Shown in pieces: positions 2,685-62,351 of a DNA stretch of 64,000 bases. Under the pieces are notes generated by a model. The model searched no databases. It was not told the DNA's origin and saw nothing but the letters and a program-made list of their open reading frames with translations. Each line of letters starts with the position of its first letter. Position 1 is the stretch's first letter. Source of the stretch: Eledone cirrhosa (lineage: Eukaryota); the NCBI GenBank assembly GCA_964016885.1, contig OZ024753.1:20956001-21020000 (forward strand), in the 5' to 3' direction. Made by a program: the position numbers and the translations under genes.

Positions 2685-3757
2685 CAGGGTTCGAGCCTCA
2701 GCCCCCTCTTATTCATTATAGTCCTCCAAGCCATAACAGAGGAGTTTAAGACTAGCTGTCCATAGGAACTTCTTGATGCTGATGATCTGGTTCTTATAGC
2801 AGAATCAGTAGAGGCGCTAGAGAAGAAATTCTGGCTATGGAAACAGCTGTTGGAATCAAGAGGACTGAGAGTGAACCTAGCTAAAATAAAAGTGTTGGTA
2901 AATAGAAAAGGGGACAATACTCTGATTCCATCAGGGAAATGGCCATGTTTGATATGTAGAAAAGGAACTGGCATAAATTCAATAAAATGTACGCAATGCA
3001 GATCTTGGGTACACAAGAGATGTAGTGGGATAGCAGGCAAACTAACAAGTAGGGAAAACTACGTATGCAGTAGATGTACAGGGAAAGTTGGCAGTAGTAA
3101 TCGCAATGATAGACACATTTTTCAAATGCAGGTGGGTTCTATACAAGTGGTTGATAGCTTCCGGTACCTAGGAGATCAGATTAGCATGGGAGGGGGGTGT
3201 TCCGAGGCCATAGTATCTAGAATAAAGATGGGTTGGAAGAAGTTTAGGGAGCTGCTTCCTCTGTTGACAAAGAAGGGTTTCTCCCTGCGTACAAAAGGCC
3301 GGTTATATGATGCCTGTGTGAGATGGGCGGTGCTGCATGATAGTGAGACATGGACAGCAACTGCAGAGGATATGCGAAGGCTGGAGAGATGCTCCGTTGG
3401 ATGTGCAATGTCAATGTGCGTGAACGACCAAGCATAGATGAGTTGAGAGAGAAACTGTGTATAAGAGGGATATGTTGTGGTATGCATGAGAGAAGACTGC
3501 GATGGTATGGACATGTGATGTGCATGGAGGATGACCGATGGGTAAAGATGTGCCAAGAAATGTCAGTAGAAGGAAGACACAGTAGAGGAAGACCACGAAA
3601 AACATGGGCGGAGGTGGTGAGAGCAGACCTCAGATCACTGAAACTCGCCGAGGAGATGACGAAGGACCGTGACAAGTGGAGAGATGCTGTGCTGAATAGG
3701 ACCCATCCAACCCTTGGAAGCAGGGAAAAGCAGCTGTAAAATGTAGATGATGAAGAT
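2685..3757 (+). mobile_element. RTE-clade LINE, 5'-truncated
   Basis: QG-LSPLLFIIVL, (Y)ADD-like ELLDADDL, Cys-rich insert CLIC-CTQC-WVHKRC-CSRC, FRYLGD, RRLRWYGHV, RGRPRKTW, then a (GAT)n tail. Confidence 0.9.
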
Positions 3758-3821
3758 GTATATATATATATATGTCTGTATATATATGTATGTATATATA
3801 TGTATATATATATATATGTAT

Positions 3822-4165
3822 GGAGGCACATGGCTTAGTGGTTAGAGCATTGGCCTTGCAATCGAAAGGTTGTGAGTTCAATTCTCAGACCGGGTGATGT
3901 GTTGTTTCCTTGAGCAAGACACTTTATTTCACATTGCTCCAGTTTACTCAGCTGTACAAATGAGATGATAGGGACTGGGGTCCCTATCATTCCACTGCAA
4001 AGTGGTCGTGGAGGTGCCACGGCAAAAAAGCACCCAGCACTCACTGTAAATGAGGTTGGTGTTAGGAAGGGCATCCAGCTGTAGAAATCAAGCCAGAATC
4101 AGTTCCCGTCCCACCCTTGCAAGCAGGGAAAAGCGGACGTAAAATGAAATGATGATGAATGATGA
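3822..4165 (+). mobile_element. tRNA-derived CORE-type SINE with RTE 3' tail (family 1)
   Basis: A box tggcttagtgg, B box gagttcaattc, CORE-like ccttgagcaagacactt, and a 3' end shared with the RTE UTRs. Confidence 0.85.
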
Positions 4166-4195
4166 TATGTATATATATATAAATGTATATATATA

Positions 4196-4405
4196 TAGGA
4201 ACAAGTAAGACCCCGACGGCTGAGCTCAAGCCGTTTCGACGGCTAATTCTGTACAAAATTAGCAGTCGAAACGGCTTGAGCTCAGCTGTCGGGGTCTTAC
4301 TTGTTCCTATTACCCACTCTACTACCCTAAGTATTGAGTACTTTGGTGCGTTATGGTCCACCTGGTTCCTTACCACGTTTCCTTCGTTATGTATATATAT
4401 ATATA

Positions 4406-4438
<33 letters not shown>

Positions 4439-4585
4439 CGAAGGAAATGTGGTAAGGAACCAGGTGGACCATAACGCACCAAAGTACTCAATACTTGAGG
4501 TAGTAGAGTGGGTAATAGGAACCAGTAAGACCCCAGAATTAGCCGTCGAAACGGCTTGAGCTCAGCTGTCGGGGTCTTACTGGTT

Positions 4586-4590
<5 letters not shown>
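4196..4590. mobile_element. Nested inverted repeats of a PLE-type terminus containing the 3' half of a hammerhead
   Basis: A palindrome at 4196-4310 plus inverted arms ~4291-4390 and ~4435-4534. Motif gtcGAAACggc-ttgagctca-gctGTC/gggg. Confidence 0.75.
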
Positions 4591-4620
<30 letters not shown>

Positions 4621-4625
<5 letters not shown>

Positions 4626-22437: not shown

Positions 22438-22650
22438 TAGTTATGTAATAAACAACATAAGACAATTATTCCATTTCACGAAGACGGACGAGCTCGACAC
22501 GGACGTCTGAAATCGCTCATCAGAATGACATTTTATATCTAAAATTTTATATCTTACATCCACTTCAAATAAAATTTCATTCTGATGAGCCATTTCAGAC
22601 CTGTCTTCGTGAAACCTTTGGTAAATGGAATGTTGTTTATTACATAACTA
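22438..22650. repeat. Imperfect inverted repeat of a hammerhead-bearing PLE terminus (same family as 46350 and 53360)
   Basis: Ends tagttatgtaataaacaacat / atgttgtttattacataacta. Plus strand 22576-22630: ttcatt CTGATGA...GAAACC ttt GGTA aatgga. Confidence 0.75.
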
Positions 22651-23787: not shown

Positions 23788-23871
23788 CGTTATTCCGGGT
23801 TGAATCGGAGGTAACCACAGTAAGTGAGGTACTCAATACATTGCAGAGTATAAAAGTTTTAATATAGATGA

Positions 23872-23920
23872 GATTTTACAGGACTAGAACTGTTTCATTC
23901 TTTAGAAATCATCAGGAATC
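23872..23920 (-). ncRNA. Type I hammerhead ribozyme within palindrome 23886-23955
   Basis: gattc CTGATGA tttc-taaa-gaat GAAACAG ttctagtc CTGTA aaatc. The plus-strand mirror copy has a mutated core (ctgctgc). Confidence 0.7.
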
Positions 23921-23969
23921 AGATTCCTGCTGCTTTCTAAAGAATGAAACAGTTCCATACATATATATA

Positions 23970-41534: not shown

Positions 41535-42377
41535 GTGTGTGTGCGTGATTTTACATCCAAATTTGAATCTAATTATATTTTACCTCTCGTTATCAATATT
41601 ATTATAAATGACATATTTTCATTAACATATTTCCCATAAGACAAGAAATAAGAAATAAAAATTGTTTTATTACATTTTATGATTTTTTTTTTCTTATACA
41701 TAATAATCAAGCTTAATTTTTTTCATTTCCCATTTCTTTGTGTGACTATGTTGGGATGTGTGTATGTATATGTGTGTGTATATGTATATATGTGTATGTA
41801 TATGTGTGTGTGTATGTATGTTTTTATATCTCTGTATATGAGTGTGTGTTTTCATGTGTGTGTGTACGTGTGTATACAAGATGGTATGTGTGTACGTTTC
41901 TATGTTGGAATGGCCGGAGCTCAGCCACTGGGGTCCTGAATCTTTTCATATATATTTGTATATATGTGTGTGTTTGTATATATATATGTATGTGTTCATA
42001 TATATTTGTATATATATATATATGTGTGTGTTTGTATATATATATATGTATGTGTTCATATATATTTGTTTATATGGATGTATGTGTGTGTGTTTGAATG
42101 TGTATTTATGTTTATGTATATGAGTGCATGTATGTGTGTTCATTTGTATGTGTATGTGTATGTATATTTATGTAGGTATGTATATGTATGTATATTTATG
42201 TAGGTATGTATGTGTATGTATGTAGGTATGTATATGCATGTGTATGTGTATATATGTAGGTGTGTATATGTATGTGTATGTATATTTATGTAGGTATGTA
42301 TATGTATATGTATGTATATTTATGTAGGTATGTATAGGTATGTGTATGTATGTAGGTATGTATATGTATATGTATAT

Positions 42378-45847: not shown

Positions 45848-46257
45848 TACAATATATTAACAAATGGAAACTATATTTATAAAACCATATTTATTTCATT
45901 ATACATATTTCAAGGACACCAAAGCAAATTATGGTGCGCTTTCATCAGATAAAATATAATATAGATCAGTTTTATAAACAAATATTGACATACCCTTAAA
46001 GAATGCGACCATGTCGGTTGGAAGCTCCCGGAGAGTGGGGTTACTAATTTTATTATAATAAAATTAGTAACCCCACTATCTGGGAGCTTCCAACCGACAT
46101 GGTCGCATTCTTTAAGGGTATGTCAATATTTGTTTATAAAACTGATCTATATTATATTTTATGTGATGAAAGCGCACCATAATTTGCTTTGGTGTCCTTG
46201 AAATATGTATAATGAAATAAATATGGTTTTATAAATATAGTTTCCATTTGTTAATAT

Positions 46258-46263: not shown

Positions 46264-46355
<92 letters not shown>

Positions 46356-46381
46356 TGTAATAAACAACATAAGATGATTAT

Positions 46382-46437
46382 TTCATTTACCAGTGGTTTC
46401 TTGAAAGCAACCAAAATTGCTTTCATTCATCAGAATC
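46382..46437 (-). ncRNA. Type I hammerhead ribozyme
   Basis: att CTGATGA a-tgaaagcaa-ttttgg-ttgctttca-a GAAACC act GGTA aat, with a perfect 9-bp stem II. Confidence 0.7.
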
Positions 46438-46888
46438 AAAAAATCCTGATTTGATAGTGGATTTGAAAAACAAAAATATAACAGATATGAAAGTGAGGCT
46501 GGAGGAAAAGAAAAGGGGCGGGGAGTAATAAATAAGAATATATAACACAACACACACGCTCACGTATATACATATCCACGCGTATATACACATTTATATA
46601 CACAGACACGTATACACACATATATATCCATATATATCCATACATAAATACACCAACACACATATATATATATATACATATATATACATATATACACATA
46701 TATATACATACATATATATATACATATATATATATACATATATACACACACACATATATACATACACACATATATACACACATGCATACGTACTCACATA
46801 TAAAAGGATACAAATAAGAATAAATAATCATAATAGGCCGTCACATACAAATAAGCAAATAAAAATTAAGGATTAAGAAAATAAAAAA

Positions 46889-53041: not shown

Positions 53042-53419
53042 TATGTATATATATATGTGTGTGTTGGTGTATTTATGTATGGATATATATGTATATATAT
53101 GTGTGTGTGTATACGTGTCTCTGTGTATATATATGTGTATATACGCGTGTATATGTATATATGTGTATATACACATATACACGCGTATATACACAGAGAC
53201 ACGTATACACACATATATATGTGAGTGTGTGTGTGTACGTGTGTGTTGTGTTATATATTCTTATTTATTATTTCCTCTCCTTTTTTTCCTCCAGCCTCAC
53301 TTTCATATCTGTTATATTTTTGTTTTTCAAATCCACTGTCAAATAAAGACACCAGGATTTTTTCATTCTGATGAAACCACTGGTAAATGAAATAATTATC
53401 TTATGTTGTTTATTACATT

Positions 53420-53690
53420 ATTTTATTGATCCCATAAGGTTGAAAGGCAAAGCTAACCTAGGTAATAATAATTGTTTCTACTTTTGGCACAAGGCCAGCA
53501 AATACTCAGTACATTACTGGTACTTTATTGTACTGGGTAATTGCTGGGTTATTATTATAATGGTTTCTGATTTAGACAAAAGGCCTACAATTTTGGAGGG
53601 AAAAGTCGATTAAATTGACACCAGTGTTTAACTGGTATTTTATTGTACCTGTAAGAATGAAAGGTAAACCTAACCTCGGAGGGATTTGTT
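53420..53690 (-). mobile_element. Cluster of decayed family-2 SINE fragments
   Basis: tgaaaggcaaag, tgtttctacttttggcacaaggccagc and aacctcggagggatttg motifs. Confidence 0.6.
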
Positions 53691-62132: not shown

Positions 62133-62351
62133 TATGCGGGTGTCACAAACACATACACACACATACACATATATATTTGAAAAGAGTCAGGATCCCCGAT
62201 GGCTGAGCTCCAGCCGTTTCAGCAGCTAGGTCCAAAATCACATATATATATATAGTTTCAGAAGATCCCATTAAGGGTGAAAGCAGCGATTCTTTGCTTA
62301 AACTTTAATCTGTTCTTATAATAAATATTTGCTCTACAGGTTTATATATAT

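Follow-up and report, generated by a model that had tools for sequence, protein, structure and literature searches.

Head-to-head insertions of a Penelope-like element in Eledone cirrhosa and the template ends that they appear to record

We analysed a 64,000-nt stretch of the Eledone cirrhosa genome (assembly GCA_964016885.1, contig OZ024753.1, positions 20,956,001 to 21,020,000, forward strand), hereafter the window. Its positions 4195-4590 hold two short insertions of a Penelope-like element (PLE), tail to tail, inside a (TA)n array, and each insertion is a short copy of the element's terminal repeat, made of a short arm and a long arm, head to head. Element positions are numbered from +1, the first G after GTC, i.e. 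the first base past the predicted cut of the element's hammerhead ribozyme (window 4291). The best model for this form, to which we give a probability of roughly 0.7, is that two target-primed complementary DNAs (cDNAs) ran off the same template 5' end and had their 3' ends joined. Across the genome, the inner ends of the arms have a sharp upstream limit at -45/-46, and a minority class ends exactly at the predicted cut.

We infer every biochemical step of this model. Both nicked strands of the (TA)n target would prime reverse transcription at two fixed tail sites, +100 and +20. Each cDNA would then extend to the 5' end of the same RNA and run off, after which the 3' tails would anneal or be joined, each then copying the other. 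The priming step is drawn by analogy with Poseidon PAc, a PLE of the green anole. In the part of PMC11167929 used here, both target strands are nicked and extended in vitro, a dimer is predicted, the target is AT-rich and the two tail ends are reverse transcriptase (RT) start sites. The tail of PAc is 30-40 nt, against 80 nt in our family. Our family has genomic copies ending at the ribozyme cut, whereas the PAc study reports no need for cleavage in vitro and no reads with an end there.

The family's 3'-terminal 31-mer has 16,850 exact matches in the genome. Our sample consists of the first 100 listed of these places (102 matches, duplicates removed), all on a single contig (C1), and was picked by the 3' end alone, which biases it to young copies. 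A separate first set of 30 loci was excluded from every sample count, and its apparent arm-specific allele at -27 is best read as query selection. In 92/100 sampled copies the element runs at +100 straight into TATA. An adjoining inverted arm was found in 74/100, and 65 of these 74 arms start from +20. The tail is thus present on one end only, its length of 80 nt being the difference between +20 and +100; PLE tails in the literature are 30-40 bp long. Long arms can also end at +20 (L164, L166, L173, L179, L190 and L093), so +20 is an independent start site.

The earlier note on this DNA had explained the palindrome in another way, by a single cDNA that folds back on the ribozyme's own hairpin and copies itself into the mirror arm. 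A copy of the +100 cDNA cannot reach further upstream than its template, so non-nested arms contradict this, and the inverted arm is more than 10 nt longer than the supposed template in 19/74 copies. For such copies we consider fold-back largely refuted. Similarly, the +20 arm is the longer one in 5/6 loci of the commonest overlap class (GAAT/ATTC), and some long arms begin at +20. A search for the junction expected from stem II fold-back gave 0 genomic matches (one allele set, gap of 0-2), though its motif is present in 25/29 long-copy rows. For a cDNA covering +1..+20 no hairpin is predicted, and palindromes with 0-3 nt spacers do occur there, at the cut site. As a general explanation fold-back is improbable, even if some of the data agree with it. 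The two arms of one copy share their haplotype, their inner ends are coupled, and the -45/-46 limit matches the stem II apical loop. Fold-back on the inner hairpin has its expected spacer in 1/50 loci with both arms reaching -45.

The shared haplotype is seen in 43/45 copies, where random expectation is 32%, and the inner ends of the two arms correlate with a rho of 0.71 over the 29 junctions without overlap. Taken together, coupled ends and shared haplotypes suggest one RNA molecule or one source locus, and do not tell the two apart. Another proposal, self-priming on an antisense transcript, was put forward in PMC3846280 for the same head-to-head palindromic junctions of rotifer Penelope elements. 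Under this proposal, too, one arm is copied from the other, a relation ruled out by the non-nested copies, and the ends at the sense-strand ribozyme cut are left unexplained. We see very little chance that it applies here.

In the window, the two insertions and their surroundings are composed as follows.

4167..4197, no strand: (TA)n target, left flank of insertion 1
4195..4254, minus strand: short inverted arm of insertion 1, +20 to -37 (-40 counting the shared GTAC)
4251..4254, no strand: head-to-head junction of insertion 1, a self-complementary GTAC common to both arms, in the 3' strand of the stem II extension
4251..4390, plus strand: long arm of insertion 1, -40/-37 to +100, with the stem II 3' strand, GAAA, stem III, cut site and 80-nt tail
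4257..4294, plus strand: 3' half of a type I hammerhead, predicted cut between 4290 (C) and 4291 (G); the full ribozyme is in long copies
4391..4434, no strand: (TA)n/(TG)n spacer separating insertions 1 and 2
4435..4534, minus strand: long arm of insertion 2, +100 to +1 (start +1 to +3, with a 2-nt overlap)
4533..4590, plus strand: short arm of insertion 2, -38/-36 to +20
4588..4621, no strand: (TA)n target, right flank of insertion 2

The outer ends of both insertions lie at +20 and +100. The palindrome that had been described at 4196-4310 is real: its centre falls between 4252 and 4253, with arms 4195-4252 and 4253-4310, and 55 of the first 58 pairs match. This centre is in the 3' strand of the extended stem II. 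As had been claimed, GAAAC, stem III and GTC/GGGG follow directly after the palindrome. The CTGANGA half is indeed absent from the window copy, but the mirror arm that stands in its place is the reverse complement of the stem II 3' strand and not the native 5' strand. The junction of insertion 1 (CTGTACAG) is seen again at other loci in the genome, and the GTAC allele at -40..-37 is native in two long copies (L050, L113).

Insertion 2 is of a mixed type, with one arm ending near the cut and its partner near -36/-38. Its long arm (4435-4534, minus strand) does begin at the first G after GTC, as the earlier note said. However, CC (4533-4534) is shared with the adjoining arm, which places the break at +1 to +3 rather than provably at +1. 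By itself this junction is weak evidence for ends at the cut. The stem II centre and the cut-site breakpoint do not stem from a single event either: a cleaved RNA is without any stem II, so the two come from different template ends. One large palindrome with a deletion, spanning 4196-4590, was rejected as well, the halves differing in alleles and each fitting the standard insertion form.

Of the relatives reported elsewhere in the window, the one at 62194-62228 is 83% identical over 35 nt; the one at ~41905-41945 was seen by eye only and gave no blastn match. Each of the two regions (62183-62245 and 41905-41945) holds a lone short arm, next to (TA)n, from a related subfamily that has diverged further, and the arm at 62 kb also ends near -40.

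In the sample, inner ends fall within -46..-34 in 55/100 forward arms and 57/74 inverted arms, and none lies in -60..-47. This 13-nt interval takes 55/92 forward starts located within -60..+70 (binomial p about 1e-31) and 57/69 inverted ends within -60..+20 (about 1e-33). The distribution is therefore far from uniform, as had been anticipated. Genome-wide, we counted 10,302 junctions with inner ends in the -34..-46 cluster. Considering the first 100 listed of 7,833 arms that reach -45, 67 run on natively, 18 form a single microhomology class, 15 end at -45/-46 and no more than 1 ends at -47..-50 (counted by eye). The arm-extension rule over-ran in about 3 sampled copies (L075, L078, L118), which inflates the count at -45 and leaves the cluster unaffected. 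Where both arms reach -45, about 41 of the 50 listed loci, out of 383, stop there (also by eye).

Junctions have overlaps of 0-6 nt or short insertions. Contigs from public runs contain the same opposite-strand joints (e.g. -44/-43, -46/-45, -41/-37) and loose TA ends at +20 and +100; these runs may include the assembly's own sample and have no bearing on RNA ends. A replicating palindromic master was rejected, as junctions vary from copy to copy. A splice acceptor causing the ends at -35..-45 was rejected too, the junctions having no constant foreign exon.

An RNA 5' end is the most likely meaning of the upstream limit at -45/-46. As for what sets it, we favour an internal transcription start at TCA+1TTT, for which we see about an even chance; a cut in the stem II apical loop, with which -45/-46 coincides, and an RT block share the remainder. 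The TCAKTY motif is found twice in the 3548-nt unit of the element, once with its A at -45, and internal promoters in PLEs are described in the part of PMC2377424 cited here. With a start inside stem II, the 5' ribozyme would be incomplete and the 3' one intact. Downstream of -45 and ahead of the probable main start codon (+191), a short upstream open reading frame (ORF) lies at element position +63.

The ribozyme itself was assessed in long copies, where its order is CCCC, UUGA[G/U]AA, stem II with extension, GAAA, stem III and GUC/GGGG. With stem I, core, stem II and stem III all in place, the family hammerhead is complete. The alignment has 29 long-copy rows, some of them the same copy in two loci, and the structure was scored on 14 aligned copies. 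The type I structure has 92% of cells paired, vs 22-52% in slid controls. There is little covariation (2 pairs). The 3:8 core pair is U:A in 9/14 copies, U:G in 1/14 and an unpaired C3.A8 in 4/14, while position 7 is G or U. A missing CTGANGA does not refute the earlier note, because a U3-A8 core is a described PLE variant (PMC4209133, in the part used here). An Rfam scan of the window had no hammerhead among the 150 listed of 156 matches, with only microRNA-type matches to the palindrome below the gathering score. Judged from its sequence, the family ribozyme is a type I hammerhead with a U3:A8 core and a predicted cut after GTC.

The segment -29..-14 (window 4262-4277), without the ribozyme 5' half, forms a predicted 6-pair hairpin in RNA and cDNA, at -7.0 kcal/mol. 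This hairpin may shield the end of the cDNA and fix where the junction cluster stops on its downstream side.

A minor class of ends is found at the predicted cut. In the sample, 5/100 forward and 4/74 inverted arms end within 3 nt of it. Forward arms starting at +1 have 442 matches genome-wide, and of 30 inspected, 22 were genuine and 8 were small indels; the uninspected controls have 126 (-7) and 90 (+7) matches. The partner arm of the 22 genuine copies ends at +1/+2 in 13 and at -36..-40 in 3. A clearer picture is seen with both arms ending at +1 and 0-3 nt between them, with 238/242 matches at about 240 loci. The same double-ended design at control positions gave 1 match (centre -3) and 8 matches (centre +5). 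In the first 54 of these loci the spacers, classed by eye, are A/T-only in 22, none in 19, of a GAC/GTC overlap class in 7 and other in 6. With A/T-only spacers, microhomology is no explanation for those 22 loci. The double +1 loci occur in all three haplotypes and thus arose many times. With regard to a paired 3:8 core, the ACG-AGG haplotype makes up 7/47 double +1 loci vs 10/45 sampled copies.

We take this class as good, if indirect, evidence for ribozyme cleavage in vivo, and the minor end at +1 is probably the 5'-OH product of hammerhead cleavage. A ribozyme-made 5' end on the copied RNA, as the earlier note proposed, is accordingly likely for some template RNAs only, those of the minority class ending exactly at the predicted cut. 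Overall, that interpretation is partly supported.

Alternatively, two cDNAs might be joined with no cutting needed, both limits being places where RT stalls on uncut RNA: the G run or the ribozyme core for one, the stem II loop or a bound protein for the other. About two thirds of the arms reaching -45 run on, -45 has no cap signature, and cleavage is dispensable in vitro for another PLE according to the part of PMC11167929 cited. Still, an RT stalled at the base of stem III should stop at -1/-2 and not at +1, both arms stop at the same base in 13/22 copies, and the inner hairpin is weak (-5.1 kcal/mol). We hold stalling to be quite unlikely.

Almost equally doubtful, though given slightly more weight, is that longer palindromic insertions were trimmed at their centre afterwards, the peaks then reflecting microhomology or palindrome instability instead of RNA ends. 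Overlap in 17/46 clustered junctions and insertions over 2 nt in 9/46 agree with this. The control at -7 is also dominated by the stem III overlap class, and the junction of insertion 2 is compatible with a GG overlap. Trimming does not account well for the sharp upstream limit at -45/-46, nor for the 22/54 +1 loci with A/T-only spacers, where all four G and four C are retained. Finally, the short form is already seen in young copies that are identical to the reference.

Several results weigh against joined run-off cDNAs and the two ends proposed for their templates. For the coupling, inner ends do not correlate significantly when all 46 clustered junctions are taken (rho 0.17, p 0.27). For a start at -45, no downstream promoter element (DPE) or motif ten element (MTE) downstream of it matches the consensus in the cited part of PMC1538597, the MTE reaching 7/10. 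No cap signature is seen at -45 either: in the 50 loci with both arms reaching it, spacers are a single G/C in 10, GC in 3 and CG in 0 (by eye), and a GC spacer means that the template included -46. For the cut, the junction class of insertion 2 has 37 matches vs 19 at a control GG site, a difference of about 2-fold (counted by eye). In the 19 loci with no spacer, the arms could have been joined at the CG dinucleotide that spans the cut. A homopolymer effect has no control either, because the arms contain no second run like GGGG. The unpaired C3.A8 core in 4/14 copies is a further difficulty. In the part of PMC11167929 used, cleavage is unnecessary in vitro, and RNA-seq reads of another PLE include none ending at the cut.

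Joining the two end classes to separately primed cDNAs, we propose, tentatively and at somewhat less than even odds, that the main RNA starts inside its own ribozyme and that only the downstream ribozyme can cut. Priming from each of the two target strands would copy one such RNA as far as its 5' end, and the two fossil end classes would be the start site and the ribozyme cut. If true, this would count as evidence for template cleavage by Penelope hammerheads in vivo. The inverted pseudo-long terminal repeat (pLTR) would be a double run-off product, and -45..-1 a terminal redundancy.

The family provides over ten thousand junctions that separate fold-back from two-ended priming, plus a precise class at the ribozyme cut, and the map names exact predicted RNA ends, +1 and -45/-46. 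In the open-licence literature we found no published map of PLE junctions relative to the ribozyme cut. The origin of PLE inverted terminal repeats and the role of the hammerhead are described as open in the cited parts of PMC8557442, PMC11167929, PMC4209133 and PMC3846280, and PMC4209133, in that part, leaves the in vivo role of PLE hammerheads open.

One long copy (L129, G000:C6:58003500-58013499) consists of 3548-nt units in tandem, and all of them have the same stop close to where the RT region begins. The ORF of the unit contains an RT (YRDD) followed by a C-terminal GIY-YIG (VIY..YIG). The one stop in L129 is at a place that is open in L059, and atlas neighbours of the ORF carry RVT_1 and GIY-YIG. 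A Pfam scan of two pieces of the ORF gave no match. The motif SDKTGNL, with DKT replacing DKG, is present in L059, L087, L129 and L154. Only one cysteine lies between VIY and YIG, i.e. there is no cysteine pair (CCHH absent). A CxCX5C linker (CNCPDRSIC) is found in L058 and L155, and CxxC and CxH (CNLC, CKH) near the C terminus. The organisation is that of an endonuclease-bearing (EN+) PLE, in tandem with a pLTR and with the inverted arms described above.

From these motifs and the (TA)n target, the element is an EN+ PLE that would fit the Hydra clade as described in the part of PMC8557442 used here. Common to both are the order RT then GIY-YIG, DKT, the missing cysteine pair between GIY and YIG, CxCX5C, CxxC/CxH, a hammerhead and (TA)n. 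The unit of 3548 nt differs from a clade generally under 3 kb, and RWR here stands where the description has RWK. The Neptune clade was rejected, as the CX2-5CxxC linker and CCHH finger of its description are lacking. A non-LTR retrozyme was rejected as well: the short insertions are inverted and hold only the 3' ribozyme half, whereas a retrozyme consists of tandem units that all carry a complete hammerhead.

Already known are the kind of element, the head-to-head junctions, the tail, the U3-A8 core and the (TA)n target. The hammerheads of Cercyon PLEs (PMC4209133, in part) are likewise of type I, with a short stem I, a long stem II with an unpaired 5'-end base, U3-A8 covariation and motifs near each other on opposite strands. 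In contrast, stem III here has 6 pairs and stem II a long extension. The pLTR junctions of Adineta Penelope, as given in the part of PMC3846280 cited, share an inverted short pLTR, a junction palindrome and a tail on one arm only. Self-priming was proposed there, whereas the counts here favour two separately primed cDNAs.

A different comparison concerns twin priming of L1. In that process, attributed to work by Ostertag and Kazazian from 2001, both target strands reportedly prime and the cDNA ends are joined with short overlaps. Here, by contrast, the priming sites are fixed, the arms duplicate the same stretch rather than abut, and both reach the template end.

Some loci vary from the common form. 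One copy (L111, G000:C1:27008125-27010469) has -44..+213 in a tandem repeat, with all four inner ends at -44, and looks like the outcome of repeated template jumping or a nascent retrozyme-like tandem. Three others (L147, L153, L025) have a piece of the element ORF or unrelated DNA captured between the arm ends, and in L147 and L153 both arms end at +1.

Another family is represented in the window at 45855-46250 by a head-to-head palindrome, both arms of which carry a CTGATGA..GAAA hammerhead-like motif; its centre (~46050) lies about 100 nt upstream of the motif. A centre outside the motif in other families suggests that the ribozyme fold does not set the centre in general. Motifs of the same kind lie in short arms by (TA)n, some head to head, at 22440-22650, 23790-23955, 46345-46500 and 53300-53430, and these are probably other Penelope-like families. 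A decayed fragment resembling a long interspersed nuclear element (2780-3760) and tRNA-like heads of short interspersed nuclear elements (3820-3960), labelled from our own reading, flank both insertions.
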